DNA from: an uncultured virus (IMG/VR IMGVR_UViG_3300009551_000046) | Lineage: Duplodnaviria; Heunggongvirae; Uroviricota; Caudoviricetes | Direction: 5' to 3' (one strand) | Length of the DNA: 64,000 bases | Virus record (IMG/VR): IMGVR_UViG_3300009551_000046 | In this document: positions 2,398 to 62,437 of the stretch, piece by piece | How positions within the stretch are numbered: position 1 is the first letter of the stretch | Layout: the number at the start of each line of letters is the position of its first letter | Notes under the pieces: generated by a model | Databases searched by the model: none | Told to the model about the DNA's origin: nothing | What the model saw: the letters and a program-made list of their open reading frames with translations, nothing else | Program-made: the position numbers and the translations under genes

Positions 2398-2448
2398 TTG
2401 AGCGGTCCTTTTTGGCGGAACTAGGGAATATCGTCCCCAACGGGCTTG

Positions 2449-2477
2449 ATTAAGGGGTGGGAAGGGAGGATTGTCCA
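2449..2477 (-). promoter_or_regulatory. Putative sigma70 promoter for the leftward operon
   Basis: TGGACA-N17-CTTAAT on the minus strand. Confidence 0.45.
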
Positions 2478-2510
2478 CACCCCGCAATGTGGAAAAATCG
2501 GGCAGCAAAA

Positions 2511-3194
2511 ATGTCAGGAAAATCAAAGAAAAATGCGTTCCGGGTGCCTTCGGAATGGACATTTCAGACGCCGACGGCGGCGGCCGCATTCGATGCGCAT
2601 GTCCGGGAAAGCTTGCCTTGGTACGATCTCGTCACCGGCGCCGTCGTGCATATCGCCCGCGCCTTCATCCCGCATGGCGGCCTTGTGCTCGACGTCGGCG
2701 CGTCGACCGGAAATGTCGGCCGGGCGCTGAATCCGGTGCTCGACGCCAGGAGGGCGGAGTTGATCGCGATCGACAACTCGGAAGCCATGGCCGATGTCTA
2801 TTCGGGCCCCGGCGATCTCGTGATCGCGGACGCCGCGGATTATGACTTCTGGCAGCCGCGGCAGCCGGACGTCGTGATCTGCTTTTTGTCGCTGATGTTC
2901 GTCCCTACGGGGAAGCGCGAAGCGGTGATCATGCGGATGAAGCAGGCGCTGAAGCCTGGCGGGGCAATCATCATCGTCGACAAGATCGCGCCGCAGGCTG
3001 GATATGGCGGCACGGTGAACTATCGGTTGACGCTCGCAGCCAAGCACGAGGCGGGCGCGACTGCGGAGGACATCCTTCGGAAAGAGCTATCGTTGAACGG
3101 CCTGCAGCGGCCGCTTGAAAACGCAGAGCTCGACGGATTTCAGGAGTTCTTCCGTTTCGGCGACTTTGTCGGGCGCTTCTTCTGCAAACTGTGA
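2511..3194 (+). CDS. CmoA-like class I SAM-dependent enzyme (carboxy-SAM synthase-like)
   Basis: WTF...AAFDAHVRESLPWY...VLDVGASTG (SAM motif I), IDNSEAM, LKPGGAIIIVDK, C-terminal FFRFGDF parallel the CmoA layout. Confidence 0.7.
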   Translation: MSGKSKKNAFRVPSEWTFQTPTAAAAFDAHVRESLPWYDLVTGAVVHIARAFIPHGGLVLDVGASTGNVGRALNPVLDARRAELIAIDNSEAMADVYSGPGDLVIADAADYDFWQPRQPDVVICFLSLMFVPTGKREAVIMRMKQALKPGGAIIIVDKIAPQAGYGGTVNYRLTLAAKHEAGATAEDILRKELSLNGLQRPLENAELDGFQEFFRFGDFVGRFFCKL

Positions 3195-3467
3195 CCGGCC
3201 AAGGGCGCGGCAGAGTGCATCGGCATATTCGCCGAGCGCTTCGGCAAGCACCGGCCGGCCCTTCTCCGTGAGTTCGGTTGTCGTCGGATTCACGGGCCGG
3301 TTCAGTTTCAGCCACCCGAGTTGGACGCATCTCAGGACGTGACGCTGCGCGATCTCGGCGTCCCTCTTCGCGCCGATTGTTGCGTCGCGCGGGAAAGGTA
3401 TCGGCTGCGGGCCGTCGATATGGCTGATCAGCACGTTCAGGTAAACCGATGTCAGGTCTTTGTGCAT
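3087..3467 (-). CDS. Hypothetical protein (possible winged helix)
   Basis: Strong RBS (GGAAGAGGAG) before GTG/ATG; overlaps the CmoA-like gene 3' end convergently by 108 nt. Confidence 0.5.
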   Translation of the reverse strand: MHKDLTSVYLNVLISHIDGPQPIPFPRDATIGAKRDAEIAQRHVLRCVQLGWLKLNRPVNPTTTELTEKGRPVLAEALGEYADALCRALGRSQFAEEAPDKVAETEELLKSVELCVFKRPLQAVQR

Positions 3468-3534
3468 CACGCGAACTCCTCTTCCTATGTCCGGGGGAGG
3501 GACGATCATCTATTTTACGCGAGCCGTCCACCCC

Positions 3535-3563
3535 TGGACGTCAGGGGCCGATTTTCCCTATAA
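3535..3563 (+). promoter_or_regulatory. Putative sigma70 promoter
   Basis: TGGACG-N17-CTATAA upstream of the 3594 gene. Confidence 0.45.
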
Positions 3564-3593
3564 GGGGCGTTCGCCAAGGAAAGAGGGAATCCG

Positions 3594-4160
3594 ATGAGCA
3601 TGAGAACCTGCGGAGACTGTCAGCTCTGCTGCCGCGTTCTGCCGATAGCAGAGATCTCGAAGGCCGCCGGCAAGCGCTGCGGCTATCAGAAGTTCGGTGT
3701 CGGCTGCAAAGTGCACGGCACGCCGACGCAGCCGCAGTCGTGCATGGCTTGGTCGTGTTGGTGGCTGATCGACCCGAAGTTCGAGGCTCCGCGCCCGGAC
3801 CGCGCCGGCTATGTCGTCGACATGATGGCAGATTTCATTGTGCTAGGCGGTGACGTGTTCGCAGGAAAGCGGGTGCCGGCAATCCAGGTGTGGGCCGACC
3901 CGAAGCGCCCGGACGCCTGGCGGGAGCTCCTGCCCTGGATCAAAGCGACCGCGATCGGGGATGCCGAGCGGGCCGCTGTGATTCGCTTCAACTCGCGCGA
4001 CGCTGTCGTCATTCTGCCGCCGGCGCTATCTAGCACCGGCGATTGGGCCGAGACCGACACCCGCATGCTGAAGCCGATCGAGACGGAGCAGCTGCGTCGC
4101 AAGACGGCAGAGGATCAATTGAGGAAGATCGAGGAGCGAGCCCGTGAGAAAGAAGTTTGA
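3594..4160 (+). CDS. CxxCxxCC (YkgJ-like) metal/Fe-S-binding protein
   Basis: CGDCQLCC...C...C...C...C pattern. Confidence 0.7.
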   Translation: MSMRTCGDCQLCCRVLPIAEISKAAGKRCGYQKFGVGCKVHGTPTQPQSCMAWSCWWLIDPKFEAPRPDRAGYVVDMMADFIVLGGDVFAGKRVPAIQVWADPKRPDAWRELLPWIKATAIGDAERAAVIRFNSRDAVVILPPALSSTGDWAETDTRMLKPIETEQLRRKTAEDQLRKIEERAREKEV

Positions 4161-4776
4161 TCCGTATGAGGCGCTCGGCGTCGCGCGCGAAGCCGAGGAA
4201 GCGGAGATCAGGGCTGCGGCGCGCCGGGCGGCCAAGGACACACATCCGGATGCCGGCGGGGATGCCGAAGCGTTCAACGACACACGACGCGCGCTCGCGA
4301 TCCTGACGGACCCAAAGCGGCGGGCCAAGTTCGATCGGACCGGAGAGGCGGAGGACGTCGAGCCAGACAACACGGAAGCCGCGGCCATGTCGATCATTGA
4401 GGGCGAGCTCGCCGCGCTGATGAACGCCTTCCTGTCGAACGACTTCAACCCGATGCTTGACCCGCGGAAGATCGATCTCGTCAAGCATATCGAGGGCAAG
4501 ATCGGCGAACGCATAGCCGGATTGTTCAAGTTGAAGCTGCAGGCTCAAAGCCACGCAAGGGTCTTGAGGGACGTCGCGGAGCGTTTCAGCCGCAAAAAGG
4601 ACGCGGCCGGCAAGTTCAATTTCATTTCCCGCAGCCTTGAGAATCAGTCGAGGGAGATCGAGCGCAAACTCGAAGAGATCATTCTCGGCATCGACAATCT
4701 CAAGGCTGCGAAAGACATGGTATCGACATATGAATTCCGGACTGACCCGGCATATGGGGCTGCTTTCTTTCGCTAG
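4144..4776 (+). CDS. J-domain (DnaJ-like) protein
   Basis: DPYEALGV...IRAAARRAAKDTHPDAGGDAEAF...LTDPKRRAKFD with HPD motif. Confidence 0.85.
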   Translation: MRKKFDPYEALGVAREAEEAEIRAAARRAAKDTHPDAGGDAEAFNDTRRALAILTDPKRRAKFDRTGEAEDVEPDNTEAAAMSIIEGELAALMNAFLSNDFNPMLDPRKIDLVKHIEGKIGERIAGLFKLKLQAQSHARVLRDVAERFSRKKDAAGKFNFISRSLENQSREIERKLEEIILGIDNLKAAKDMVSTYEFRTDPAYGAAFFR

Positions 4777-5052: not shown

Positions 5053-5093
5053 CCCCTTGCAAGCACCGGAGGCGAGGGGCTATTTTCCCCGCC

Positions 5094-5570: not shown

Positions 5571-5573
5571 GCC

Positions 5574-7268: not shown

Positions 7269-7269
7269 G

Positions 7270-7298
7270 TAGACAGCGAATTCGACTCATGCCATATA
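7270..7298 (+). promoter_or_regulatory. Putative sigma70 promoter of intergenic sRNA
   Basis: TAGACA(7270-75)-N17-CATATA(7293-98), an alphaproteobacterial sigma70-like arrangement. Confidence 0.55.
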
Positions 7299-7303
7299 TC
7301 GAG

Positions 7304-7404
7304 CGTCGCTGCTTCCTTCCAAGTTGCTCGACAAGTTCTCCTTTCTTGGCGGAACGGAGAGATCAGGGCGGCGCTTCAGGAAACTGGAGCGCCGTTTTGT
7401 TTTT
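7304..7404 (+). ncRNA. Candidate ~100-nt trans-acting sRNA (CCUUCC loop, UUGGCG loop, terminator)
   Basis: Promoter upstream, hairpin TTCTCCTTTC-TTGGCG-GAACGGAGAG, intrinsic terminator; no plausible + strand ORF. Confidence 0.55.
7367..7404 (+). terminator. Rho-independent terminator
   Basis: GGCGGCGCTTCAG-GAAA-CTGGAGCGCCGTT followed by TTGTTTTT. Confidence 0.8.
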
Positions 7405-7472
7405 GACCCCATGACGCGGCCTTTCCTCCCGTGGTAAGGAGTTCAAAGGTTCAAGCGCGGAAGGGGTCGACG

Positions 7473-10400
7473 ATGGCGAACGGATGGGGCGGGAAGCGTC
7501 CGAACAGCGGGCCCAAAGTAGGGGCCGACGGCAAGGCGCTGAAGCCGTACAGCCGCCGAGATCAGTCGAAAAGTTCAAGCGACAGTTCAAGGAAGCCAGC
7601 CGACGCGCAGGTGATCTCGACGAAGCCGGCGACACCGAACCGCCCGATGTTTTCGCCCGAATCCGTCGAGGCGATCATCTCGGCGTTCCGCGAACTGAAG
7701 TCGCGCCGACCGCGTCCGAGGACGCCTGAAACCAATCCGTACATGATCCGACCGGAGCTCTTCGGGCCGGTCGCAGTCGACATCAAGAAGAGGAAGCCTA
7801 CCCTCGCGATGGATGCGGATACCGGGCTCGTGAGCGCGAATTCGTTCGCTGTTCAGGCCTGGCAGAACGGCTCGCTCGGCGGCGGTGACGATGCGTCCGA
7901 AGGCATGCTGTTCCTCGGCTACCCCTATCTATCCCAGCTGACGCAGCGCCCGGAATTCCGGCTGTTCGGCGAGATCATGTCGGAAGAGATGACTCGCAAA
8001 TGGATCGAGTTTCGCGGCACCGACGATGCGAGCACGAAGGAAAACGACAAGCCGAAGCGGCGCAACGACGACGACGACGAGGCAGATCGGCGCCGGCAAA
8101 AGACGGGCGAGAAGCCGCGGTCTGATGACCGGAACAAGGAGATCGAGCGCAAGGTTCTCGAACTGAAGGATTTCGCCGAGGAGCTCAAGCTGCGCAGCGT
8201 GTTCAAGGCGGTTGCTGCGCAGGACTCCGATTTCGGAATCGCGCATCTGTATCTTGATCTGAAGGGCACCGACATCGACAACCAGCGCGACAAAGAGAAC
8301 GCGATGTCGATCGGCAACGGCCGCGACGACATTTCGAGCAGCAAGCTGACGACCGGTTGCTTGGCCGGGCTGCGAACCATCGAACCGATTTGGTGCTATC
8401 CGACGGCCTACAATGCGTCGAACCCGATTGCCCCGGATTGGTATGACCCGGCCGTCTGGTATGTGATGGGCGCCGAAATTCACAAGACGCGGCTGCTGCC
8501 ATTCATCGGCCGGCCGGTGCCCGACATCCTGAAGCCGGCTTATGCGTTCGGCGGACTATCGATGTCGCAGATGGCGCAGCCATACGTCGACATCTGGCTG
8601 CGGACCCGCGAAAGCGTTGGCGAGATCATTCATGCGTTCTCCGTCATGGTGCTATCGACGGAGCTCGGCACGACGACCCAGCCAGGCGGTGCCGGCGGAG
8701 GCAACGGCGATATTCTCGCCCGCATGATGCTTGCGAACATGCTTCGGGACAACCAAGGCATGATGGTGATCGACAAGACATCGGAGGACTTCAAGAACAT
8801 CAGCGCGCCGATCAGCGGGCTCGACGATCTGCAGGCGCAGGCGCAGGAGCATATGTTTTCGGTCGGCCGGATCCCGGCGGTGAAGTTTGCCGGCATCCAG
8901 CCGAAGGGTCTGAACGCGACATCCGACGGCGAGATGCGCGCCTTCAACGACACGGTTCACGGCCGACAAGAGCATCTCTTTCGGCAGCATCTGACGACCG
9001 TGCTCGACATCATGCAGATTTCGCTGTGGGGCAAGCGAGATCCGGACATCACGTATGACTTTCTCCCGCTGCACGAGGAGACGCCGAAAGAGAAGGCGGA
9101 GATTCGCAAGATCGAGGCGGAGACCGATCAGGTCAGGGTCGACAGCGGCGTCGTGTCGCCCGAGGAGGTGCGGGCAAAGGTCGCGGCCGATCCTGAATCC
9201 GGTTTCCAGGGGCTTGATCCGGATGACGTTCCCGATCTGCTGCAGGAGGAGCAGGAGGGGTTGATCCCGGAGGGCGCCGGCAAGGGGCTTGAGGCCGAGC
9301 TCGAGGCCGGCGGCAAGCCGCGGGAGAGTCGCACGGCGCCGAAAAAAGACGACGGCGCCGAGGATGACGATCTCGACGACGACGACGAATTCGACGGCGC
9401 CTCTGACGAATGGCAGGAGGGCAAGCATCCGCGGGACCAAGACGGCAAGTTCGCGTCGTCAGGCGGCGGCGGCGGCGGAGGTGCGGCGGCGGAGCCGTCT
9501 CCCGAGGCATCGAAAAGCGACACGCTGAAGAAGGCGAAGCAGATGATCGAGGAGCAGGATCTCGCCGATCCGCAGCAACTCGCGTCTGTGATCGAGGCTG
9601 CGGAAAAGCACGGCCTCTCCGGCGTGATCATGAAGGGGCTGAAATCCGTTCAGGAGAAGGTCGGCAAGCCGCCGGCGCCGGCAGCGGGGAAGCCGCCGGC
9701 ATCGACGACCGGAGGGCCGAACGCCGCGCCGCAGCTGCCGCTGAAGAAGCTCGACGTATCGAAGCTCGACAAGGTCGGTCAGCAGATGGGATCGAACCCG
9801 GGCGGCGTCTATGTAGACCCGGCGAATGGCGAGAAGTTCTACGTCAAGAAGCCGAAGGGCCCGGCGCAGGTGAAGAACGAAATCGCTGCCGCGAAGCTGT
9901 ACCAGCTCGCCGGTGCGCACACGTTCGAATATCTCGACGCCGGACCCGATCATGTTGCAACCAAGATCGAGGCGCTGAAAAAAAAGAACGTCAGCGAGTT
10001 GTCTCCGGAGGAGCGCAAGGAAGCACAGAGGGACTTCGCGATACACGCCTGGCTTGCGAATTGGGATGCGGTCGGCACCGGAGGCGACAACGTTGGCGTC
10101 GGCGCCGATGGCAAGGTGAAGGTGCTCGACACCGGCGGATCGCTGAAATATCGAGCGCAGGGCGAGATGAAGGACTTCGGCGCAAGTCCGAACGAACTCG
10201 TGACGCTGCGCGACCCGAAACTGAATCCCGACGCTGCGGCGCTCTTCGGCGATATGTCTGAAGCGGACATGACGGCGAGTGCGGCACGCGTAGCCGACAT
10301 CCCCAACAACGCGATCCGTGATGTCGTGAAAGCTGCCGGCGAGAGCGAAGAACTCGCCAATACGCTGATCGCACGCAAGAACTCTATCGCGCAGAAGTTC

Positions 10401-11972
10401 GATCTATGGCCTGCAGGCGACACGAACCCCGAATGGGAGGCGCTGCATCCGCGCGGTCCCGGCGGCAAGTTCGCGAAAAAGGCAGGCGCCGAGGAGCCGG
10501 CGAAGCAGGAGGCGGCGGAGCCGGAGGAGAGCACCGAGGAGATCGGCGGCAAGGTCGAGATCGACATGCTTCTCGCGAAGAAGCCGATCGCGGGATCGAA
10601 CTATCGCAAGGCGCTCCAGAAGGCGCTGAAGTCGGGCGGCCTGTCTCCGGAGCAGACGAAGACGGCCGCGGAGAACCTCTATCTGTCTTGGCACAAGACG
10701 ATGGACAACTACGCGGCCAAGGGCGATCACGACACCGCGGGCAAGATCAAGGAGAAGCTGAACAAGATCTTCGACGACTACAATCTCGACGTGACCGCTC
10801 TGTGGGAAAAATTCGAGGCGATGTCGCCCTCTAGCCCCATGATGAAGCCCGCATCGGTCGGCAAGAAGAAGGAAAAGGCGAAGAGCGAGCCTCCGCCGGC
10901 GCCGGCGCCTGCCGCGCCCGAGCCGCCGCCTGCACCGCCCCCCGCACTGGAGCCGCCGCCTGCGCCTGCGAAGCCTGAACCGGCCAAGCCGGAGAAGAGC
11001 GCGGCTGCCAAGTTCTATCCGGAGCCGACAGAGGCCGACCTTGCGAAGGCCAAGAAGACGGCTGAGCTCAAGATGGAATACGTGAAGGGCTCGAAGCCGA
11101 AGGAACCCGAGGGGGTCGCGGTCGCGAACAAATTGATCGCCGACTTCAACGAGAAGTATGCCGGCAAGGAGATCACTGATCACGATGAGCTCGTCGAGAA
11201 GGTGGCGCAGTTCAAGGGATTGAGCGACGCGATCAACGCGATGGGGGTGATGGAGGAAAAGGGTGCGCAAGAAGCAAACGCGGCAGCCCTAGCCAAGATC
11301 AAGCAGGTTCAGAAGGAAAAGGCGGAGCAGGAGGCCAAAAAAGCCGCCGAGGAAGCGGCCAAGCACGCCGAACGCAACAAGAAGTTCATGAGTGAACTCG
11401 GCATCAGCGAGAAGCAAGCCGAGGGCATGTATGGACTCGCGCAGATGCTCGGCATGTCCGGCAAGGATCTTGTCGGCGAGTTCAAGCACTACGAGGAGGA
11501 AGCAAAGGGGCTCGGCTATCCGATCTCCGGCTTCCAATGCGCGGTGATCAAGAACTACAGCGGGAGCGGCTATCAGGCGGTGAATTCTGCTCTGCGGTCC
11601 GGAGCCTGGACGCCGGCGCAGCACGCGTATGTGTCGATGGTGAACAAGGCGCTCTCCGAAATGCCGAAGCATACCGGGGTCTGCAAGCGCGGCACGGACC
11701 TCACGGCTGCGCAGATCGCTCAATACAAGCCCGGCCATATCGTCCAGGAGAACGCGTTCCTGAGCACGGCATCGACGGGGTCGGGCTTCAGCGGGAATGT
11801 CCGCTTCACGGTCACCGCGATCGGAAAGCGGGGAGCGTCGATCCAAAAGCTTTCGCTGCATCCGAGTGAAAACGAAGTGCTGTTCCAGGCGCGGACCTTC
11901 TTCAAGGTGAACAAGGTCGAGAAGAAGGACGGCTTCACCGAAATCCACATGGAAGAGTGGGAGGAGCACTGA
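7473..11972 (+). CDS. Portal protein (DUF1073-type) fused to an atypical kinase-like domain and a C-terminal ADP-ribosyltransferase
   Basis: Portal: FLGYPYLSQLTQRPEFR...EMTRKWI, VPDILKPAYAFGGLSMSQ, IPAVKFAGIQPKGLNATSDGE. Kinase: GSNPGG/YVK/NE/WD..DN/DTG. ART: KRG/FLSTA/ENE. One uninterrupted ORF. Confidence 0.85.
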   Translation: MANGWGGKRPNSGPKVGADGKALKPYSRRDQSKSSSDSSRKPADAQVISTKPATPNRPMFSPESVEAIISAFRELKSRRPRPRTPETNPYMIRPELFGPVAVDIKKRKPTLAMDADTGLVSANSFAVQAWQNGSLGGGDDASEGMLFLGYPYLSQLTQRPEFRLFGEIMSEEMTRKWIEFRGTDDASTKENDKPKRRNDDDDEADRRRQKTGEKPRSDDRNKEIERKVLELKDFAEELKLRSVFKAVAAQDSDFGIAHLYLDLKGTDIDNQRDKENAMSIGNGRDDISSSKLTTGCLAGLRTIEPIWCYPTAYNASNPIAPDWYDPAVWYVMGAEIHKTRLLPFIGRPVPDILKPAYAFGGLSMSQMAQPYVDIWLRTRESVGEIIHAFSVMVLSTELGTTTQPGGAGGGNGDILARMMLANMLRDNQGMMVIDKTSEDFKNISAPISGLDDLQAQAQEHMFSVGRIPAVKFAGIQPKGLNATSDGEMRAFNDTVHGRQEHLFRQHLTTVLDIMQISLWGKRDPDITYDFLPLHEETPKEKAEIRKIEAETDQVRVDSGVVSPEEVRAKVAADPESGFQGLDPDDVPDLLQEEQEGLIPEGAGKGLEAELEAGGKPRESRTAPKKDDGAEDDDLDDDDEFDGASDEWQEGKHPRDQDGKFASSGGGGGGGAAAEPSPEASKSDTLKKAKQMIEEQDLADPQQLASVIEAAEKHGLSGVIMKGLKSVQEKVGKPPAPAAGKPPASTTGGPNAAPQLPLKKLDVSKLDKVGQQMGSNPGGVYVDPANGEKFYVKKPKGPAQVKNEIAAAKLYQLAGAHTFEYLDAGPDHVATKIEALKKKNVSELSPEERKEAQRDFAIHAWLANWDAVGTGGDNVGVGADGKVKVLDTGGSLKYRAQGEMKDFGASPNELVTLRDPKLNPDAAALFGDMSEADMTASAARVADIPNNAIRDVVKAAGESEELANTLIARKNSIAQKFDLWPAGDTNPEWEALHPRGPGGKFAKKAGAEEPAKQEAAEPEESTEEIGGKVEIDMLLAKKPIAGSNYRKALQKALKSGGLSPEQTKTAAENLYLSWHKTMDNYAAKGDHDTAGKIKEKLNKIFDDYNLDVTALWEKFEAMSPSSPMMKPASVGKKKEKAKSEPPPAPAPAAPEPPPAPPPALEPPPAPAKPEPAKPEKSAAAKFYPEPTEADLAKAKKTAELKMEYVKGSKPKEPEGVAVANKLIADFNEKYAGKEITDHDELVEKVAQFKGLSDAINAMGVMEEKGAQEANAAALAKIKQVQKEKAEQEAKKAAEEAAKHAERNKKFMSELGISEKQAEGMYGLAQMLGMSGKDLVGEFKHYEEEAKGLGYPISGFQCAVIKNYSGSGYQAVNSALRSGAWTPAQHAYVSMVNKALSEMPKHTGVCKRGTDLTAAQIAQYKPGHIVQENAFLSTASTGSGFSGNVRFTVTAIGKRGASIQKLSLHPSENEVLFQARTFFKVNKVEKKDGFTEIHMEEWEEH

Positions 11973-12196: not shown

Positions 12197-12225
12197 TGGA
12201 CACCGATCGACGAAAGGGAAAATAA
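12197..12225 (+). promoter_or_regulatory. Putative sigma70 promoter
   Basis: TGGACA-N17-AATAAT. Confidence 0.4.
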
Positions 12226-12297
12226 TCCCTCCTGACGATGCGTCGTCCGCATAGCCGCCAAAGCGTGACGAACGGTGTTATGTCTCTCAATATGCCC

Positions 12298-12345
12298 CAG
12301 GAGGGGTGAAGGGTCGCCGACCGGTCCTTCACCCCTTTCCTGTTT
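12298..12345 (+). other. Strong intergenic hairpin (terminator or attenuator candidate)
   Basis: CAGGAGGGGTGAAGG ... CCTTCACCCCTTTCCTG inverted repeat followed by TTT. Confidence 0.45.
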
Positions 12346-13100: not shown

Positions 13101-13352
13101 ATGGTGAAGCAGTCGCCGACGTCGCCCGGAGCAAGTCTAGTTATCCGCGACGTCGCGCGACAGCTGCGCGACATGCGCGAGAAGTGGAACATGAGCCGCG
13201 AAGATCTCGCGGAGGTCTCGGGTGTCTGCGCTCGCACGATCTCTGAAATCGAGAGCAACAGCCGGGCGCATGAGGCGAGCATCAGGACGATCTGCAATAT
13301 GGCTGATGCTATGGGGTGCGACATCGTCGTCGAACTCAAGTTCAGGGGCTGA
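13101..13352 (+). CDS. XRE-family HTH regulator
   Basis: LRDMREKWNMSREDLAEVSGVCARTISEIE...SIRTICNMADAMG. Confidence 0.8.
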   Translation: MVKQSPTSPGASLVIRDVARQLRDMREKWNMSREDLAEVSGVCARTISEIESNSRAHEASIRTICNMADAMGCDIVVELKFRG

Positions 13353-14442: not shown

Positions 14443-14666
14443 AAACTAGGGAGTTCAAGGCGCTCAAGAGCGCTTACGAAACGCCGGATGGCTGGGGGTT
14501 GTTCAGCGCCAAGACGACAATGCTTCTCGCCAAGCGGGGCTACTTCGCGGAGGCGCAGCATCCCCGTTTCGGCAAGCAATGGCGCCTGACTTCGGCCGGC
14601 CGTGAGGCCTTCGAGAAAGCTAACAGCGCCCGCGATCAGATCGCTGGACGTCCGCGCCGGGGATGA
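14439..14666 (+). CDS. Hypothetical protein (winged-helix-like)
   Basis: ATGA overlap; LAKRGY...WRLTSAGR. Confidence 0.55.
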   Translation: MKTREFKALKSAYETPDGWGLFSAKTTMLLAKRGYFAEAQHPRFGKQWRLTSAGREAFEKANSARDQIAGRPRRG

Positions 14667-14706
14667 TTATCCTCTAGCGTACCGCCAAGAACCGAGAATC
14701 GGATCG

Positions 14707-22752: not shown

Positions 22753-22816
22753 GTCTCCCCTTTCCTTTGCCACACCGCGCGCTATGTTGGGCGCGTGCAT
22801 CGGGTAGGCGCACGCG

Positions 22817-22887
22817 GCGGGGGCATGGTTCGGGCTGGGGGAGGTCATGCCCCTCGGCTAGGGGTTCGAATCCCCTCCCCCGACGCA
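22817..22887 (+). ncRNA. Degenerate tRNA-like element (possible CAT anticodon)
   Basis: Perfect T-arm AGGGG-TTCGAAT-CCCCT, acceptor GCGGGGG/CCCCCGA, imperfect anticodon arm with GTCATGC loop, short weak D-arm, ends GCA rather than CCA. Confidence 0.35.
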
Positions 22888-22914
22888 TTCCGCCAAATCA
22901 GGAGAACGTCGAAA

Positions 22915-35974: not shown

Positions 35975-36005
35975 CCTGATCCCGTATCCGCCAAGGAGGT
36001 AAGAC

Positions 36006-41380: not shown

Positions 41381-42802
41381 ATGGCCGTTCCTCAACCGAC
41401 CTTCGGACCGAACGGGTTCATCACGCCGGCGGAAGCGGACATCCTTGTCGCGGTCAAGGAGGACGTCAACACGGCTTTCGGCGGCGTCCTCAACATGGCC
41501 GACGAGACGCCGCAGGGGCAGCTATCGGTCAGCATGGCGGCCGCGATCGGCAACAAGAACGACGCCTTCGTGTTCCTGTCGCAGCAGTTCGACCCAGCCT
41601 ACAACAGCGGGCGCTATCAAGACGCCATCGCGCGCATCTATTTCATCGAACGGTTCGGTGCGCAGCCGACATCGGTGATTTGCACATGCTCCGGGCTGCA
41701 GGGGGTCATCATCCCCGCCGGCTCGCTTGCACTCGGCCAGGACGGCAACCAATACGTCGCGACGGAGAGCGGCACGATCGGGATCAGCGGCACCGTCGAC
41801 ATGAACTTCGCGTGCACGACGAACGGCCCGATCCCCTGTCCGGCGGGCAACGTCAACGGGATTTTTCAGGCGATCAATGGCTGGGACTCGATCACGAACG
41901 CGACGGAGGGGGTTCTCGGCCGCGACACGGAAACGCGTCAGCAATTCGAGGAGCGCCGGTTTGCGTCGGTAGCGAAGAACTCCGTCGGTTCGCTGCCGGC
42001 GATCCGCGGCACGGTGCTCGCGCTCGACGGCGTTCTCGACTGCTACGTGACGGAGAACGTGCAGCCGACGCAGCAGACGATCCGCGGCGTCCTGCTCGGC
42101 CCGAAATCGCTCTATGTCGCCGCGGTCGGCGGGGACTCGAATGCGATCGCGCGCGCGATCTGGACGAAGAAGGCGCCGGGCTGCGGCTACAACGGAAACA
42201 CCAACGTCACGGTCTACGACACGAACTCGGGATATTTTCCGCCGTTACCGGCTTATGCCGTCGCGTTTCAGCGGCCGCCGTCCCTGTCGATCCTGTTCAA
42301 GGTCGATATTCAGAACAACGCGCAGGTGCCGTCCGATGCGGTCGCGCAGGTGCAGACCGCGATCATCGCGTCTTTCGCCGGCACCGATGGCAGCCAGCGC
42401 GTCACGATTGGCAGCGAGATCTTCGCCGCGCAGTTCTATAGCGCGGTCCGCGCGCTCGGCAGCTGGGCGCAGCTGAAGTCGCTCAAGATCGGCTCGAATC
42501 AGGCACCGGATGCCGTCGTCACCGGATCGATCGCGGCCGCGGTGATGACGGTGACGGCAGTCACTTCGGGCGTAATCGTCGCCGGCGGCACGGTCTCGGG
42601 CGCCGGTGTTCTCGACGGCACGAGGATCATCAGCCAGCTGACGGGGACGCCTGGCGGCATCGGCACCTATTCCGTGACGCTGTCGCAGACCGTGACGCTG
42701 CATCCCCTCACGATGGCATCCCCGACGCTCGACACGATCACGCCGACGATTGACGTCGTCCCCGCGGTCGTCGCAGCCAACATTCAGGTGACCTTCACAT
42801 GA
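41381..42802 (+). CDS. Baseplate J/gp47-family protein with inserted beta-rich repeat
   Basis: TPQGQL, QDAIARIYFIER, GRDTETR..FE.RR. Confidence 0.85.
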   Translation: MAVPQPTFGPNGFITPAEADILVAVKEDVNTAFGGVLNMADETPQGQLSVSMAAAIGNKNDAFVFLSQQFDPAYNSGRYQDAIARIYFIERFGAQPTSVICTCSGLQGVIIPAGSLALGQDGNQYVATESGTIGISGTVDMNFACTTNGPIPCPAGNVNGIFQAINGWDSITNATEGVLGRDTETRQQFEERRFASVAKNSVGSLPAIRGTVLALDGVLDCYVTENVQPTQQTIRGVLLGPKSLYVAAVGGDSNAIARAIWTKKAPGCGYNGNTNVTVYDTNSGYFPPLPAYAVAFQRPPSLSILFKVDIQNNAQVPSDAVAQVQTAIIASFAGTDGSQRVTIGSEIFAAQFYSAVRALGSWAQLKSLKIGSNQAPDAVVTGSIAAAVMTVTAVTSGVIVAGGTVSGAGVLDGTRIISQLTGTPGGIGTYSVTLSQTVTLHPLTMASPTLDTITPTIDVVPAVVAANIQVTFT

Positions 42803-49828: not shown

Positions 49829-49869
49829 GGGCTGCTACAGGTTGCGCGTGCGGTGGCGTCTCGGCGTTA

Positions 49870-49940
49870 CCGCTGCCCTCCTTGGGCGTTTCCTCCCTAT
49901 GACTAAGGCCGCCCCGGCAACGGACGCGGCCTTTTCTTTT
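49870..49940 (+). ncRNA. suhB/MmgR (alpha-r8)-like sRNA including its terminator
   Basis: CCCTCCTTGGGCGTTTCCTCCCTATGACT followed by AAGGCCGC...GCGGCCTT-TTCTTTT, matching the suhB-family pattern as I recall it. Confidence 0.7.
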
Positions 49941-49942
49941 GG

Positions 49943-50242
49943 TCAGAGGATCATCTCCTCGCAGATGTACACAACCGCGCTCCAAGGCCGCCGGAAGCCC
50001 GGCCGGCTGCAGATCTCGCAGCGGACATAGACCGCGGTACAGGCGCGGCGACCGCCCGTCTTGGTCGGGAAGTCGATGTAGACGTCCCTCCTGCCGGTCT
50101 CTTTCCACTCGTGCCGATGTTCCACGTGAAACATCCCTATCGGACGCAATTTCCCATGACGTCGAGGCGGTCCCCAATGGTCACGCATGGCGGCCCGTCC
50201 TGCGGCGGCCGCGTCGAATAGCCGTAGAGCGCCCCGAGGCAT
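49943..50242 (-). CDS. Hypothetical protein (start uncertain)
   Basis: HEW...RCEICSRPG; last gene of the leftward operon. Confidence 0.4.
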   Translation of the reverse strand: MPRGALRLFDAAAAGRAAMRDHWGPPRRHGKLRPIGMFHVEHRHEWKETGRRDVYIDFPTKTGGRRACTAVYVRCEICSRPGFRRPWSAVVYICEEMIL

Positions 50243-50869: not shown

Positions 50870-51705
50870 GTCGGGAATTGGCGGACGATCGGGCGCCCGT
50901 CCGGGAAGGGCTTCTTGCCGGCGTTCTGCTTCAGGAAGTAGGCGACACCGGCAAGCTCACAGTCTAGCCGGACGTTCGACTCCCACTCCGGAAGCATTTC
51001 CCGATAGCCGTGACCGCTCTCCCCGCCGCAGATCAGCCAGTGCAAGCCTTCGACAAAACGATACCCGTCCGGGTCGGCGTAGAGGCGCAACGGTCCTAGC
51101 GCCGGCTCATAGGAGCAGAAGCGGACGGCCGCGGGAATGTCACGGATGATCGGCCATCGGCGATCGAAATGCTCCTGATCCTCGGCGGTGAAGCCGAGCC
51201 AGACGTTCGTCCAAGGCCATTGTCGAGCGAGCCCGGCAACGCTGACCGCCTTCGTGAGCATCTTCTCGATATTCTCCGGGCGCTTCGTGAGCAGGAGCCA
51301 ATCGAGCTCCTGAGTCCGCGAAATCATCTCGAAAAGATCATACCGCCATTCCGCCGGGACTTGATTGTCGAACACGTCGGCGAGCGAGGCGCAGAAGACG
51401 CGCGGGCGCCCGGGCTCCGGAGCACGTTCAGACGGGTGTAGCCGCTCCTCAACCGAGCGGCGCGCCTCCCATGCCTGCCGCTCCGCGCGTGCCCTCCGCG
51501 CCCATTGCAGCGGCTTCTTCCAGTTCGCCTCCGACGTCCGCCGGTAGTCGCCGGCCTGGCCGGGCTCGCCCCATTGCTTAACCCATCCGCGAAACTTGTT
51601 CTGCGCGGCGGCATAGCAGTTATCGCAGCCGGGGCTGATCTTCGTGCATCCGATCCATGGGTTGAACGTGAAGTCGCACCATTCAATTGCGGTCTTATCG
51701 CCCAT
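50866..51705 (-). CDS. Phage Gp37/Gp68 (DUF5131, radical-SAM-like) protein
   Basis: IEWCD.TFNPWIGCTKISPGCDNCYA, VFCASLADVF, LLLTKRP, WLICGGESG. Confidence 0.9.
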   Translation of the reverse strand: MGDKTAIEWCDFTFNPWIGCTKISPGCDNCYAAAQNKFRGWVKQWGEPGQAGDYRRTSEANWKKPLQWARRARAERQAWEARRSVEERLHPSERAPEPGRPRVFCASLADVFDNQVPAEWRYDLFEMISRTQELDWLLLTKRPENIEKMLTKAVSVAGLARQWPWTNVWLGFTAEDQEHFDRRWPIIRDIPAAVRFCSYEPALGPLRLYADPDGYRFVEGLHWLICGGESGHGYREMLPEWESNVRLDCELAGVAYFLKQNAGKKPFPDGRPIVRQFPT

Positions 51706-55047: not shown

Positions 55048-55196
55048 TTCGCAGTGTCCTTGGCGGATCGAAGGATGCGGAGCACCTCTTCGCGGGCTTC
55101 GTCATTGGTCGGCTCGCGGCCGAGGCGGGCGGCGAGTCGGTTCCAGATCGTATCCGGATTGTCGTTGCGCCAAGTGATCCGGACTTCGAGCGGCAT
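55044..55196 (-). CDS. Small hypothetical protein (not in ORF track)
   Basis: MPLEVRITWRNDNPDTIWNRLAARLGREPTNDEAREEVLRILRSAKDTAK*, 50 aa. Confidence 0.55.
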   Translation of the reverse strand: MPLEVRITWRNDNPDTIWNRLAARLGREPTNDEAREEVLRILRSAKDTAK

Positions 55197-55201
55197 AGGA
55201 A

Positions 55202-55414: not shown

Positions 55415-55450
55415 TGGTCGTTCCTCTTTGGCGGAAAGGGAGAGGCGACG

Positions 55451-55645: not shown

Positions 55646-55715
55646 GGCGAGTCTCCGTTTTCTTGGCGTACCGCATCAAGCGGTGGAGAAGCGCAGATGT
55701 CCACACCCCGGAGGC

Positions 55716-60144: not shown

Positions 60145-61072
60145 GCTTCTTGGCCTCCTGCTCGCGCCGCTTTTTGAAGGCCGCGATGTCCTTCTTGGCG
60201 CCGGCGAACTGCTTTGCCGGCAGATCGACTAGCCGATCAATCCTGTATTTCTCGCAGAACTTGTCCTCCGGAAGCTGGGCATCGGCGATCGTAAGGCGGA
60301 GCTCCTCGGCTTCGGCGGCAGAGATCGTCGCCGATTCATCCGGCTGCTCGTGATCCTGCTGCTGCGCTTCTTTCCGCTTGAACCCGTCATTGTCTAGATC
60401 TCGGGGATCCTCGCTGACAATGTCGAGCATCAAGATCAGATTGTAGCGCTTGCCGTAACTCGCGCCGCTGCCGAAGCCCTGCTGATTGTTCTTCTTGCCG
60501 GAGACCTCTGCGGAAAGCGGAAACCGCGACGCCATGTTGTGACCGTCGACGTGAGTCAGATAGCCGACGACGTCGGCCTTCGAGCCGTCGGCGGAGGGCT
60601 CGATCACGTTGTTGAAGGTGAAGCCGTGCTCTTTGAGCAGCGGGCGGCAGACGCTCATGAGATTCGGATAGGTCGAGTAGCGGGTCTTGAGGCGGGCGTT
60701 TCCGCGCGAAGTGACGCCGTCGCCGTGATCAATGATGCCGTCGCGGTTGATAGACGGCAGCTTGAACTGCAGCGCATTGAACGCGCGCGTGAATGACTTG
60801 CGGGCCTCGCGGTCCTCAATGTCCTTTTGCATCTCGTAGAGCTCGCGCATCTTGGCGGGATCGCAGCGCGGGTCGAGCGCAGCCGTCATGATGACTTCGA
60901 TCATGCTGCGCGGTGCCTGCGGAGCGGCCGGTTGCCGGTGCGCGATGGCCCGACTCTGTGTCGGCTTCTCAGCCTTCGCCGGCAGTTTCTCGGCCTTCGC
61001 CGGCTGCGCGGCCGGTTGCTTGGCGGGCTCGAAGAGCTCGGGTTCGGCTGTCTTGGTCTTGGGGCGTGCCAT
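60137..61072 (-). CDS. ERF-family single-strand annealing protein
   Basis: Y......VCRPLLKEHG...LTH.DGH...QGFGSGASYGKRYNL; AGGAGG RBS before ATG 61072. Confidence 0.85.
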   Translation of the reverse strand: MARPKTKTAEPELFEPAKQPAAQPAKAEKLPAKAEKPTQSRAIAHRQPAAPQAPRSMIEVIMTAALDPRCDPAKMRELYEMQKDIEDREARKSFTRAFNALQFKLPSINRDGIIDHGDGVTSRGNARLKTRYSTYPNLMSVCRPLLKEHGFTFNNVIEPSADGSKADVVGYLTHVDGHNMASRFPLSAEVSGKKNNQQGFGSGASYGKRYNLILMLDIVSEDPRDLDNDGFKRKEAQQQDHEQPDESATISAAEAEELRLTIADAQLPEDKFCEKYRIDRLVDLPAKQFAGAKKDIAAFKKRREQEAKKHG

Positions 61073-61170
61073 GGTTCCTCCTGCGGGACCGCAATTCATG
61101 GAGCATCCCCCGTCCGGCCAGCAGTCGCCGCACGGGGGATGCGATCGTTTTCCGAAGCGCTCGACGTACA

Positions 61171-61521
61171 TCACAGATCGACGTCGTCGAAGATTGAGCG
61201 GTTGCCCTTGTCATCAAGCAATGTGCCATCCGGGGCAAACACCGGGCTTCCATTCGGATGCCGGCTAGCCGCGTCCGCTGCATATTCGGCGCGAGCCGTC
61301 TCGCCGTAGTCGGGCGGCTCGTCAACGGCGCCGTGAGTGTTGCGGGCGAACGCCGGGCATGTCTGCTCGGCGGTCGTGTATTTCTTGGCATGCGGGCCGT
61401 CGCCGAGGCAGAGCGCCTCGGTGTCGCCGCGGGGATTGTCGGTGCCGCCGCCAGCCCGAGCGATCATCTCAGACCAATAGCGGCAGCCTTCGCAAACCTG
61501 ATCTCCGGCATAACGTCCCAT
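61171..61521 (-). CDS. Cys-rich hypothetical protein
   Basis: CEGCRYWSE...ALC...C. Confidence 0.6.
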   Translation of the reverse strand: MGRYAGDQVCEGCRYWSEMIARAGGGTDNPRGDTEALCLGDGPHAKKYTTAEQTCPAFARNTHGAVDEPPDYGETARAEYAADAASRHPNGSPVFAPDGTLLDDKGNRSIFDDVDL

Positions 61522-62408
61522 CAGCGCACCAACGATTTTGGACGCTTGCCGAAGCGGGCGCCCTTGATCTGCACCGACGGATCGTCCGAATAGCCGACGC
61601 TCTTCGCATAGGCACGGACGGCGGTCTCGAGCGCGGCGGCTGGAAGATAGGGCCGAAGCTTTTCGAGCTCGAGCACGTTGCGATCGGTGACTTCGGCGAA
61701 AGGTTCGGTCCCCATCGTCGCGAGGGCGCCGGATGCCGTTCGCTGCCGCATGATGTCGGCCGGCCGAGCAAGTGTGTCGATATAGGCATCTTCCGCCTTG
61801 GCCGCGGTGACGACGGCTTCGACGGTCGCCGAGCTCGCCTGCTCTTCCTTCACCTCCGCGACCGACTCCTTCGCAGCCTGCGTTTCCGGCTTCCGTGCCC
61901 GCTCGGCGGCCAGGCGCGCGGCTTCCGCCTCGGCGCGGGCGCGGGCTTCCGCCTCCGCTGCCTCGCGGGCCTTGCGCGCGGCTTCCGCCGCCTCGGCGCG
62001 CCGCCGCTCCTGCTCGGCGATCAGAAGCCGGGTGTCATAGTCGGTCAGCAGCCGGTTCAGCCGGTCGGCAATGCCTTCGGCCGCCGCCTTCTTCTGCCCG
62101 CGACTGATGCGCTCCATAAGCCCGAAGAACACAGAGTCCGCGGCGCGGCCGCGCTCAAGGTGCGGCGCCTTCTCCGCCTCGTGAACACCCTTCACGCGCT
62201 TGTAGGCTTCGCGCATTTCCTTGATCAGGCCGGTGACGATGTCCTTCACCTCCTGCGAGTCGACGACTTCGATCGGCTCGCCCTTGGCGAGGAGCTCGGC
62301 GACGGCGTTTTCCAGATAGCTGTAGTCGCGGAGCAGGCGTTCCCGCTCCTCGCCGAAATAGTCGATCGTCGCGGCGTTGTCGCCGATGCCGGGAGTTCTG
62401 TCATTCAT
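61521..62408 (-). CDS. Coiled-coil phage protein of the recombination module
   Basis: GIGDN N-terminus, EKAPHL..GRA.D..F, long E/A/R helix. Confidence 0.7.
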   Translation of the reverse strand: MNDRTPGIGDNAATIDYFGEERERLLRDYSYLENAVAELLAKGEPIEVVDSQEVKDIVTGLIKEMREAYKRVKGVHEAEKAPHLERGRAADSVFFGLMERISRGQKKAAAEGIADRLNRLLTDYDTRLLIAEQERRRAEAAEAARKAREAAEAEARARAEAEAARLAAERARKPETQAAKESVAEVKEEQASSATVEAVVTAAKAEDAYIDTLARPADIMRQRTASGALATMGTEPFAEVTDRNVLELEKLRPYLPAAALETAVRAYAKSVGYSDDPSVQIKGARFGKRPKSLVR

Positions 62409-62437
62409 TGGCGGAGTCCTTCAGGGGTTGCGCGAGA

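Follow-up and report, generated by a model that had tools for sequence, protein, structure and literature searches.

A short start-linked leader word 5' of the Shine-Dalgarno sequence at about eleven genes of an uncultured soil phage

The stoperators of mycobacteriophage L5 and cluster A are repressor-bound DNA sites that act on transcription, and they are not known to keep a fixed distance from a Shine-Dalgarno (SD) sequence. In phage T4 a single phage reader, RegA, acts on initiation regions, its sites being AU-rich and overlapping the start codon. What defines a trans-acting sRNA regulon is a conserved sRNA whose targets are known from experiment; such sRNAs, like loop-presented antisense RNAs, usually have their seed in or near a hairpin loop, along with an anti-SD stretch rich in C and U, and end in a Rho-independent terminator. 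The epsilon element of T7 gene 10 is a translational enhancer that pairs with 16S rRNA outside the anti-SD. The start-associated sequence (SAS) of cluster K mycobacteriophages is an asymmetric word found at 11-19 copies per genome, nearly all in one orientation directly before starts, mostly at non-structural genes of unrelated families, and seldom met in the host or other phages (PMC3203893). It is 13 bp long (GGGATAGGAGCCC), includes the SD core AGGAG, ends 3-7 bp from the start and is conserved across three subclusters; its reader, whether RNA or protein, is given there as not known (Pope et al. 2011, PMC3203893).

The window analysed here is a whole stretch of 64,000 nucleotides of DNA from an uncultured soil phage; it is GC-rich, and its nearest DNA signals are alphaproteobacterial. 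The sequence (T)TCCGCCAA was found just 5' of the ribosome-binding site at about 11 genes, mostly small and of no recognised function, and the fuller consensus of this leader word was (G)TTCCGCCAA(G/A). Its core, CCGCCAA, is a short word. A common layout was shared by 11 sites, in which the motif was followed by an A/G-rich spacer of 0-7 nt, the SD sequence and a start codon 11-19 nt past the motif. Eight of these sites had exact CCGCCAA (14682, 18111, 20220, 22890 and 35988 on the plus strand; 2412, 55060 and 55428 on the minus strand), two had CGCCAA and one had a one-mismatch variant (CCCCCAA). The sequence-only reading had placed the motif against the SD of about 10 genes on both strands, and the ten motif strings that it quoted were all present, in position and on the strand given. 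In PHROGs and Pfam scans, the genes behind the 11 sites, which lay on both strands, comprised ten small ORFans and one tail assembly chaperone.

2412..2418, minus strand: canonical site, GTTCCGCCAA-aaaGGAcc; ATG 2397, 14 nt past the motif; 76-aa ORF 2397-2167
3572..3577, plus strand: CGCCAA site (one C short), gttCGCCAAggaaagaggg; ATG 3594, 16 nt past the motif; 188 aa
4927..4933, minus strand: CCCCCAA one-mismatch variant, GTTCCCCCAAcaaaaGGACCGC; ATG 4910, 16 nt past the motif; 45-aa ORF
14682..14688, plus strand: canonical site; ATG 14707, 18 nt past the motif; 64 aa
18111..18117, plus strand: canonical site within the 3' end of the preceding gene; ATG 18137, 19 nt past the motif; 154 aa
20220..20226, plus strand: canonical site within the final codons of the preceding gene (..GCC AAG GAG TGA); ATG 20240, 13 nt past the motif; 75-aa ORF, added by hand
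22890..22896, plus strand: canonical site, TTCCGCCAAatcaGGAGAAC; ATG 22915, 18 nt past the motif; 84 aa; a tRNA-Ser-like T-arm remnant lies 5'
35988..35994, plus strand: canonical site, TCCGCCAAGGAGG; ATG 36006, 11 nt past the motif; tail assembly chaperone, phrog_1932
55060..55066, minus strand: canonical site within the 3' end of the preceding gene; ATG 55047, 12 nt past the motif; 61-aa ORF, added by hand; ATGA overlap
55428..55434, minus strand: canonical site, TTCCGCCAAagaGGAAC; ATG 55414, 13 nt past the motif; 70 aa
55663..55668, minus strand: CGCCAA site, taCGCCAAgaaaacGGAGA; ATG 55645, 17 nt past the motif; 64 aa

Three of the sites (18111, 20220 and 55060) were operon-internal and lay in the last codons of the preceding gene.

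Counted on both strands of the whole window, CCGCCAA occurred 25 times, against an expectation of 13.65 (sd 3.77, maximum 23) from whole-window dinucleotide shuffles, of which 0/100 reached 25. The gene starts are those of the 93 genes given by our own crude automatic caller. In the -40..+3 windows at these starts, the top 6-mer was CGCCAA (12 of its 58 copies, binomial p = 5e-8) and the top 7-mer was CCGCCAA (7 of 25 copies, p = 3e-6), which ranked above every SD word. When each upstream window was shuffled 1000 times with its own dinucleotides preserved, a mean of 0.38 copies was obtained for the 93 genes compared to 7 observed, and for a set of 97 genes, which included four small ORFs added by hand for following a motif, a mean of 0.44 compared to 11 observed; 0/1000 shuffles reached the observed count in either set. 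The reverse complement, TTGGCGG, was found 0 times in the same windows, as opposed to 11 sense copies of CCGCCAA. The full pattern of motif, SD and start was found at 6 of the 25 copies, whereas composition-matched permuted words gave at most 2. The excess over background, both in the window and at starts, that the sequence-only reading had looked to as its check was therefore present, and CCGCCAA is a genuine signal of gene starts, belonging to a kind about which little is understood.

The 25 copies were classed as eight sense copies 5' of an SD, three start-proximal but atypical copies, three other non-coding copies, eight sense coding copies and three antisense copies. All eight sense coding copies were in the frame xCC-GCC-AAx; the earlier caution that GCC-AAG (Ala-Lys) is common in this genome explains the coding copies, but fails for the start-linked ones. 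The atypical and other non-coding copies were as follows.

62408..62414, minus strand: atypical copy, CCGCCAATG, overlapping the ATG of a 295-aa gene, 3' of the SD
50878..50884, minus strand: atypical copy 8 nt before ATG 50869 (DUF1643 protein), with no SD between
50321, minus strand: start-proximal atypical copy, 28 nt from the ATG
7346 (minus strand), 12255 and 21907 (plus strand): other non-coding copies in the classification
12197..12345, plus strand: promoter-like TGGACA-N18-AATAAT (12197-12226) with the sense motif at 12255-12261
Same region, plus strand: 9-codon ORF with its ATG 18 nt past the motif at 12255-12261, and a terminator-like hairpin (12303-12345), upstream of an ORF starting at 12361
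7346..7352, minus strand: non-coding copy; the minus strand reads GTTCCGCCAAgaaaGGAGAAC-TTG with a 15-codon ORF, and the plus strand carries the anti-motif UUGGCGG

The copy at 62408 had been reported as lying between the SD and the start; it was indeed found there, overlapping the ATG, and is probably a different element from the leader motif. The copy at 50878 is possibly a chance occurrence. The copy at 7346 was the only non-coding one without a plausible gene (no ORF of at least 25 codons was listed from its TTG).

The word was then compared with other DNA. Start-linked copies (motif, SD and start) made up 7 of 402 in 1.32 Mb from 80 Hyphomicrobiales loci, taken as comparison DNA, compared to 6 of 25 in the window (Fisher p = 3e-5), which argues against a general trait of that clade. 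Upstream k-mer enrichment was tested in 73 loci of 15 kb or more, one of them the phage's own contig, from about 115 that had been fetched (head-morphogenesis protein at most 64% identical), and in none of the 72 from relatives was the motif enriched. Nor was there any start-linkage in the approximately 115 loci of distant relatives, and CCGCCAA was absent from the three nearest terminase relatives (71-75% identical, contigs of 3.5-5.4 kb). The closest relatives found had 75% (terminase) and 64% (head morphogenesis) protein identity, and neither set carried the word. The leader word is private to this phage among the DNA compared.

The reading that we prefer, at a probability of about 0.4, is that (G)TTCCGCCAA(G/A) is an mRNA-leader cis element that marks about 11 initiation regions as a co-regulated set via a trans-acting reader. 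The word, placed directly 5' of the SD, would tag these translation initiation regions (TIRs) as one set, and a trans-acting reader would bind it in single-stranded form and thereby alter ribosome access, the word being next to the SD. What the analysis demonstrates is the enrichment of the word, its orientation, its fixed distance to the start and its restriction to this phage; we infer that it acts on RNA, that a reader exists and that translation is affected. The comparison with relatives lends this reading no support. Candidates for the reader are a protein of the phage or its host, an RNA, or a contact on the ribosome just beyond where the 16S rRNA ends at its 3' side, and a protein and an sRNA stand equal among them. 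No RNA-binding protein was recognised among the 93 (PHROGs) and 68 (Pfam) proteins scanned in the window, which is possibly not the whole genome.

It is somewhat unlikely that the word is functionless, a remnant of the repeated copying of a leader/RBS cassette before newly gained small genes, to which tRNA-Ser-like recombination may have contributed and gene-end Ala-Lys codons may have added copies. Similarity does extend past the core between the sites at 2412 (GTTCCGCCAA-AAAGGACCGC) and 4927 (GTTCCCCCAACAAAAGGACCGC), and TTCCGCCAA-N4-GGAGAAC is alike at 7346 and 22890. Since some leaders are clearly paralogous (the pair 2412/4927 and the group 7346/22890/55668), part of the signal is shared descent. 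Small ORFans, which account for 10 of the 11 genes, are typical accessory cargo, three of the sites double as GCC-AAG codons, and the word is conserved in no relative examined. However, the core is exact, and outside it most leaders are no more alike than background: mean flank identity in register across sites was 0.33-0.46, with a core of 7-10 nt kept, which favours constraint on the core over recent copying. Recent copying should have left longer identities, yet no direct-repeat family fell on the leaders among the 20 largest families. The copies are also spread on both strands over 53 kb, and by a rough estimate the three sites that double as codons still exceed the codon-frequency prediction.

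A further alternative, which we consider unlikely, is that the reader is an antisense sRNA made from 7305-7405 on the plus strand, whether driven by its own promoter or carried as the 3' UTR of the terminase mRNA, that would pair with motif and SD and so block ribosome binding at every member of the set.

7305..7405, plus strand: candidate RNA of about 100 nt (predicted), with a 5' hairpin bearing a CU-rich loop, a middle hairpin and a terminator
7270-7299, plus strand: promoter-like TAGACA-N18-ATATAT, 5' of the candidate RNA
7364-7405, plus strand: terminator with a 16-bp stem (7364-7399) and a U-run, at the 3' end of the candidate RNA

The sequence-only reading had put a candidate sRNA at 7304-7404, and this region does carry an exact reverse complement of the motif (7346-7352), with an anti-SD run, UCUCCUUUCU, adjoining it on its 5' side, between the promoter-like site and the terminator. 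UUGGCGG is predicted at the tip of the middle hairpin; UGGC forms the apical loop there in the minimum-energy structure, the mean paired probability of UUGGCGG being 0.39. The fold was more stable than all of 200 shuffles (z = -3.7), although the terminator supplies most of this stability and may simply end the terminase transcript. Contiguous Watson-Crick complementarity of 7-10 nt across the motif was found at 11 of the 12 other sites, the exception being the variant at 4927 on the minus strand, where the sole 7-nt match falls outside the motif. Such complementarity is automatic for a motif copy in reverse orientation and so is not independent evidence. Duplex energies averaged -24.0 kcal/mol over the 16 motif-bearing TIRs and -18.2 over the 81 others; the separation of targets was nevertheless poor, with several non-motif TIRs among the best 10 duplexes, because the anti-SD run pairs with any SD. 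Furthermore, since the spacing of motif and SD ranges over 0-7 nt, extended pairing would vary by site. The 7346 copy was the most consensus-like of 13 sites (flank identity 0.458 compared to 0.33-0.43; chance of top rank 1/13), and four cluster K1 phages likewise have a lone SAS in opposite orientation away from a gene start (PMC3203893). The 7305-7405 region gave no family match in an Rfam search, a search for RNA runs listed none, and in the three nearest relatives the sequence that follows the terminase gene lacks the candidate element. The 7346 sequence could alternatively be one more minus-strand motif copy followed by a 15-codon mini-ORF.

The word may instead be a DNA site for a phage regulator at or just past promoters, an operator or roadblock similar to the oriented 13-bp stoperators of cluster A, but we regard this as distinctly unlikely. 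The intergenic promoter-like sequences had the pattern T[GA]GAC[AG]-N16-19 followed by a -10-like hexamer. In addition to the promoter-like sites at 7270-7299 and 12197-12226, the following sites were found near motif copies.

2449..2477, minus strand: promoter-like ggtgTGGACA-N17-CTTAAT; the 2412 site follows after 30 nt
55675..55703, minus strand: promoter-like ggtgTGGACA-N17-CTTGAT, ending 6 nt upstream of CGCCAA at 55668
3535..3563, plus strand: promoter-like TGGACG-N17-CTATAA; CGCCAA at 3572 follows after 8 nt
14645-14673, plus strand: promoter-like site ending 8 nt 5' of the motif at 14682

An exact 10-mer, GGTGTGGACA, was common to the promoter-like site at 2449-2477 and to 55698-55707. 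All 5 intergenic promoter-like sequences were followed by a copy within 6-48 bp, one of them reversed (7346), and among the 31 unannotated gaps that are 50 nt or longer 10 held a copy, including 5/5 gaps with a promoter-like site (hypergeometric p 0.0015). A predicted HTH_3 protein encoded at 13101-13352 is a candidate binder. On the other hand, the distances from predicted promoter to sense copy were 6, 8, 8, 28, 30 and 48 nt, an eight-fold variation, whereas the distance from motif to start stayed at 11-19 nt at 11/11 sites; the word therefore tracks the start codon and not the promoter. No promoter-like sequence lay immediately before any of the three operon-internal sites: at 18111 and 55060 the scan passed none, and the match nearest to 20220 was in coding sequence, at 20142, ending 48 nt upstream. 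A DNA site would not require the 11:0 orientation split or the constant place 5' of the SD, a conserved core of 7-9 bp is short for a specific DNA-binding protein, and 11 further copies are in coding DNA, where they match the codon usage prediction. This pattern, strictly sense and tied to the start, with a promoter distance of 6-48 nt, fits the post-transcriptional element that had been proposed earlier.

The 3' end of tRNA-Ser(UGA) is also TTCCGCCA, so the tag matches it letter for letter and the candidate RNA at 7305-7405 could also pair with the free acceptor end of that tRNA. It is highly improbable that the approximately 100-nt phage RNA (7305-7405), with its UUGGCGG hairpin tip and anti-SD, is a master antisense regulator of about 11 starts tagged (T)TCCGCCAA that also pairs with the free acceptor end of tRNA-Ser(UGA), an arrangement that, if true, would make the regulon's translation depend on how the host tRNA-Ser pool stands, in a T-box-like logic in trans.

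Among the known systems, the stoperators resemble the leader word in being short, asymmetric and present in many copies, which follow the direction of transcription and occupy short gaps between genes on both genome arms, and differ in that the word here keeps a tight start-codon register and that no lysogeny module was seen in the window. As with RegA, a single phage-encoded reader acting over the initiation regions of unrelated phage mRNAs would apply to the preferred reading, whereas no RegA-like protein was recognised in the PHROGs and Pfam scans of the window. The candidate at 7305-7405 has the usual build of the sRNAs that define trans-acting regulons, although it is predicted only and is without a homologue. 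T7 epsilon, too, is a word in a phage leader immediately before the SD, but the word here would fall past the 3' end of the 16S tail (...CACCTCCTTT). Complementarity to 16S rRNA was looked for and not found, UUGGCGG being absent from the 16S rRNA of 4/4 Hyphomicrobiales genomes checked; the 6-mer TGGCGG alone occurs in those 16S genes, at two internal places.

Compared to the SAS, the word here is 7-10 nt long and unrelated to GGGATAGGAGCCC, stands 5' of a separate SD (0-7 nt spacer), ends 11-19 nt from the start, was seen with no ESAS-type inverted repeats, and occurs in a phage of a different host group, given its nearest DNA signals. The likeness is that of a short asymmetric word in about a dozen or more copies, in sense orientation and start-linked, here at 11 sites, mostly at non-structural genes from unrelated families, together with a lone reversed copy away from a gene start, here at 7346. 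By functional analogy, and without homology, the leader word belongs with the cluster K SAS.

Genes were called with a purpose-written simple caller based on codon usage and RBS, which returned 93 genes; a second set of 97 genes comprised these and four small ORFs included manually for lying downstream of a motif. Every string quoted in the sequence-only reading was present in the window, and CCGCCAA occurred 25 times, compared with 13.65 ± 3.77 in whole-window shuffles, none of 100 of which reached 25. Eleven copies were coding, eight of them sense (frame xCC-GCC-AAx) and three antisense to genes. A further eight lay 5' of a Shine-Dalgarno (SD) sequence with the start codon 11-19 nt past the motif, three were start-proximal and atypical (62408, which overlaps the ATG, 50878 and 50321) and three were other non-coding copies (7346, 12255 and 21907). 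The same layout was found at three imperfect-core sites, CGCCAA at 3572 and 55668 and CCCCCAA at 4927. The claim that the word is tied to the SD of about ten genes on both strands was borne out, with 11 sites sharing one layout.

Positional enrichment near starts was assessed by shuffling each upstream window separately, which keeps local dinucleotide content. Seven copies were observed against 0.38 expected for the 93 genes and 11 against 0.44 for the 97-gene set; neither count was reached in any of 1000 shuffles. In an unbiased k-mer test of the -40..+3 windows, CGCCAA was the top 6-mer (12/58 copies, p = 5e-8) and CCGCCAA the top 7-mer (7/25, p = 3e-6), above all SD words, and these windows held no copy of the reverse complement. 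The earlier caution about Ala-Lys codons applied to the eight sense coding copies, although start-window enrichment was still well above the local shuffles. The CCGCCAA start signal is thus real and statistically robust.

Aligned on the core, the sites gave the consensus ttCCGCCAAggA.ggAgga, with no conserved positions further upstream of the core in the alignment. The layout consisted of the word, an A/G-rich spacer of 0-7 nt, the SD (GGAG, GAGG or AGGA) and ATG, and the distances from word end to start at the eleven sites were 14, 16, 16, 18, 19, 13, 18, 11, 12, 13 and 17 nt. The sites spanned 53 kb on both strands, and three of them (18111, 20220 and 55060) lay within the final codons of the preceding gene. 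Ten of the 11 downstream genes encoded proteins of 45-188 aa without a PHROG or Pfam family; the eleventh encoded the tail assembly chaperone.

The G+C content was 62-66% along the whole 64 kb, and the window is phage DNA end to end. Plus-strand genes between 2.5 and 49.3 kb were assigned through PHROGs to terminase, a 1499-aa portal fusion, major head protein, sheath, tape measure, baseplate, fibres and endolysin, and minus-strand genes between 49.9 and 64 kb to recombination (Erf, YqaJ-type exonuclease and NinB-like; PHROGs, Pfam). Three tRNA genes were present. The tRNA-Gln gene adjoins the genes for both a DnaJ-domain protein (4144-4776, +; PF00226, 9.6e-13) and a class I methyltransferase, a tRNA methyltransferase in PHROGs (2487-3194, +). 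A 36.5-kb IMG/VR contig represents the same phage. Among public runs, one rhizosphere metagenome only was a full match, and four root and soil metagenome runs yielded only short contig pieces, at low depth, of this phage or one nearly identical to it. Four further features are as follows.

7473-11972, + strand: 1499-aa portal fusion (PHROGs), an unusually large fusion.
33523-35508, + strand: tail sheath in two adjacent ORFs (370 and 287 aa) 9 nt apart, matching the N-terminal and C-terminal parts of phrog_205.
25781-25893, 31571-31616, 32898-32988, 34037-34332 and 42519-42609, + strand: coding repeat of about 90 nt, 60-80% identical (phrog_21413/38233).
49868-49946, + strand: full-length match to the suhB/mmgR sRNA (Rfam RF00519, 59 bits, E = 1e-9).

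In the portal fusion, a portal domain (phrog_146) is joined to a minor head or MuF-like region, and the C-terminus matches a head maturation protease family (phrog_595). The two-ORF sheath may mean that the gene is split, or may reflect a frameshift or a sequencing problem. The repeat lies in five structural genes (minor head protein, two unnamed, the N-terminal sheath ORF and the baseplate wedge protein) and looks like a shared surface-domain module. The suhB/mmgR match carries the conserved UUUCCUCCCU run and a terminator and is located at the junction between the plus-strand lysis genes and the minus-strand block. The suhB/mmgR family is alphaproteobacterial, and the match resembles a host sRNA copied into the phage. 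The 25-nt core of the match was found in at least 120 Hyphomicrobiales contigs, and the best host match among the matches listed scored 51 of 79.

The most likely reading, to which we give a probability of roughly 0.4, is that CCGCCAA is an mRNA-level start-associated element. The word would act in the mRNA, as its sense orientation is strict (11 to 0), and such a role would fit both the narrow word-to-start distance (11-19 nt) and the sites internal to operons.

The alternative that inert copied leader cassettes explain the word appears somewhat unlikely. Paralogous leaders extending past the core were seen for 2412 with 4927 and for 7346 with 22890 and 55668, and flank similarity was generally at background (0.33-0.46). 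Comparison with other genomes placed the start-linked word in this phage alone. In Hyphomicrobiales DNA, 7 of 402 CCGCCAA copies were start-linked (followed by an SD and a start), compared with 6 of 25 in the window (Fisher p = 3e-5); this set of 80 diverse loci around mmgR genes (1.32 Mb) serves only as a proxy for the true host, and in it permuted words of matched composition behaved as CCGCCAA did. A megablast of 20 kb against GenBank phages returned no close relatives. The capsid protein was at most 45% identical to any record, and the tail-chaperone query matched the phage's own IMG/VR contig and one relative at 49%, and nothing else. The head-morphogenesis protein had relatives at 80 viral and 36 genome loci, the best non-self match being 64% identical; 73 of these loci were at least 15 kb, one of them the phage's own contig, and in the other 72 neither enrichment of CGCCAA nor an evident private word was seen. 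The three nearest terminase relatives, from metagenomes (71-75% identical, contigs of 3.5-5.4 kb), had no CCGCCAA copy and lacked the element at 7.3 kb. In IMG/VR, the leader pattern of 2412 and 4927 was found in the phage's own contig only; TTCCGCCAA-N3-5-GGAGAAC was found at 78 loci, was matched twice only in that contig, and two or more start-linked copies occurred at the phage's own locus only. As far as testable, the start-linked word is a habit of neither the host clade nor the phage family. With the word thus confined to this phage, conservation is unusable as evidence for or against function.

A candidate sRNA at 7304-7404 had been put forward as the reader of the word, and this proposal stood in part: the anti-motif (UUGGCGG), a promoter-like site and a terminator were all present, but the candidate RNA had no Rfam match and the element was absent from the nearest relatives. 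Several observations argue for antisense reading by this RNA. The copy at 7346-7352, in the 204-nt gap from terminase to portal, was the only one on the strand opposite its neighbours, was the most consensus-like of the 13 sites and had at most a 15-codon TTG ORF downstream; the plus strand there reads as the anti-motif. The anti-motif lay 46 nt past the promoter-like TAGACA-N18-ATATAT, and directly downstream was a terminator of 16-bp stem and U-run, stronger than any other detected in the first 20 kb. The 101-nt stretch was predicted to form three hairpins (z = -3.7), the middle one with a UGGC loop that would place the anti-motif at the tip, with an anti-SD run as the 5' arm. Of the 12 other sites, 11 showed contiguous complementarity of 7-10 nt across the motif, the exception being 4927 (-), whose longest match lay outside it. 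In PMC3203893, four K1 mycobacteriophages are also described as having a single reverse-oriented start-associated sequence (SAS) away from gene starts. However, any reverse copy of the word gives complementarity automatically, and duplex energies did not cleanly part the motif-bearing translation initiation regions (TIRs) from other TIRs. We consider this reader unlikely.

A promoter scan (T[GA]GAC[AG]-N16-19 plus a -10-like hexamer) gave 11 candidates among 77 hexamer matches. All five non-coding candidates (2472-, 3535+, 7270+, 12197+ and 55698-) had a copy of the word downstream, and candidates at gene ends (14645+ and 20142+) likewise preceded one. The word was present in 10 of the 31 unannotated gaps of at least 50 nt, including all five with a promoter-like site (hypergeometric p = 0.0015). 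This association would be consistent with a DNA operator, for which the HTH protein encoded at 13101-13352 is a candidate binder. However, sense copies of the word lay 6, 8, 8, 28, 30 and 48 nt past the -10, and the reverse copy at 7346 lay 46 nt past it, whereas the spacing to the start codon stayed at 11-19 nt, and an operator is distinctly improbable. A fixed promoter element was rejected, as there was no fixed register and no conserved column upstream. Because the promoter distance varies whereas the start distance does not, the word would be part of the leader RNA, in line with an mRNA-level element; on the simplest view, genes carrying the motif are often promoter-proximal. Predicted transcription starts at 3572, 14682 and 55668 were 1-3 nt ahead of the word, so these mRNAs would begin with it.

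The 10-mer GGTGTGGACA occurred in exactly two copies, 2472-2481 (-) and 55698-55707 (-). In both copies the 10-mer spans the -35 of a promoter-like site, upstream of a block of minus-strand genes, and a CCAC-rich run some 15 nt downstream can base-pair with it; the two are likely to be co-regulated early promoters or operator sites. One of the non-coding candidates heads a compact unit.

12197-12345, + strand: promoter-like TGGACA-N18-AATAAT, sense CCGCCAA, a 9-codon ORF and a terminator-like hairpin.

The predicted hairpin is of about 13 bp and is followed by UUUCCUGUUU (fold z = -2.4). The unit, for which there was no Rfam match, lies directly upstream of an ORF at 12361 and the head genes, and its layout resembles an attenuator or antitermination control site.

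The 3' ends of tRNA-Ser genes (genomes G002-G005, loci L322-L333) were compared with the motif sites. Several tRNA genes ended in ...TCCGCCA in all four Hyphomicrobiales genomes; ARAGORN called tRNA-Ser at five of six loci checked, and the UGA isoacceptor ended in ...CCCCTTCCGCCA or ...CCCCATCCGCCA. The extended word (T/A)TCCGCCA thus matches exactly the acceptor 3' strand, discriminator G73 and CCA of tRNA-Ser(UGA). The attB of an Acetobacter prophage, at a tRNA-Ser 3' end, is this same sequence (PMC8566455). For a 6-8-mer the identity may be coincidence and is no basis for the main reading, and it is most improbable that the candidate sRNA reads both the tagged starts and this acceptor end. 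A tRNA-like fold at the sites was rejected, since a T-arm-like neighbour was present at 22890 only and, by eye, the other sites had no 5' partner for TTCC.

22796-22896, + strand: tRNA-like remnant with long hairpin GGGGCAUG...CAUGCCCC, T-arm GGGGTTCGAATCCCC, 8-nt insertion and TTCCGCCA.

The T-arm here is tRNA-Ser-like and upstream of the word at 22890, and the insertion is relative to tRNA-Ser. ARAGORN called no tRNA in this interval, which may represent a degenerate tRNA-Ser gene or a site resembling attP.

Other readers were dismissed: 16S rRNA, as UUGGCGG was absent from the 16S genes of all four Hyphomicrobiales genomes and, with the SD paired, the word would lie past the 3' tail ...CACCTCCTTT; and the phage mmgR-like sRNA, as contiguous complementarity of at least 8 nt was found at only two of 12 sites and covered CCAAGGAG(G), mostly SD. 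SD pairing to upstream bases showed a weak trend, with a probability of 0.51 in 16 motif TIRs compared with 0.32 in 68 others (p = 0.039, uncorrected). An SD-hiding self-hairpin was rejected as the main explanation, since total SD pairing and minimum free energy did not differ between motif and other TIRs and neither a consistent stem nor covariation was seen by eye. A protein may also be the reader; no RNA-binding protein was recognisable among the window proteins (PHROGs, Pfam).

A limited literature search, which is not proof that it is unpublished, found no description of the motif as a start signal. The closest known system is the SAS of cluster K mycobacteriophages, as described in PMC3203893. 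SAS resemble this word in copy number, orientation and rarity elsewhere; both are located at the starts of unrelated non-structural genes, and the reader of neither has been identified. They differ in sequence and length, and the word lies 5' of a separate SD whereas SAS contain the SD; SAS are conserved across related phages, and this word was start-linked only in this phage among the loci compared. On that description, CCGCCAA works like SAS and is outside the SAS family by sequence and exact architecture. The kind of signal is therefore already known and unexplained, and the CCGCCAA instance is new. SAS have been known since 2011, and here a short, clean example comes from another phage and host group. 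Mutations in the word would leave ribosome pairing intact, as it is separate from the SD, and the complementary small RNA, with its promoter-like site and terminator, is a concrete, testable candidate for the reader. If the word proves inert, it would be a caution about the spread of leader cassettes in phage genomes. If a reader is found, it would show how phages switch scattered small accessory genes on or off jointly, and could give the first mechanism for the whole SAS class.
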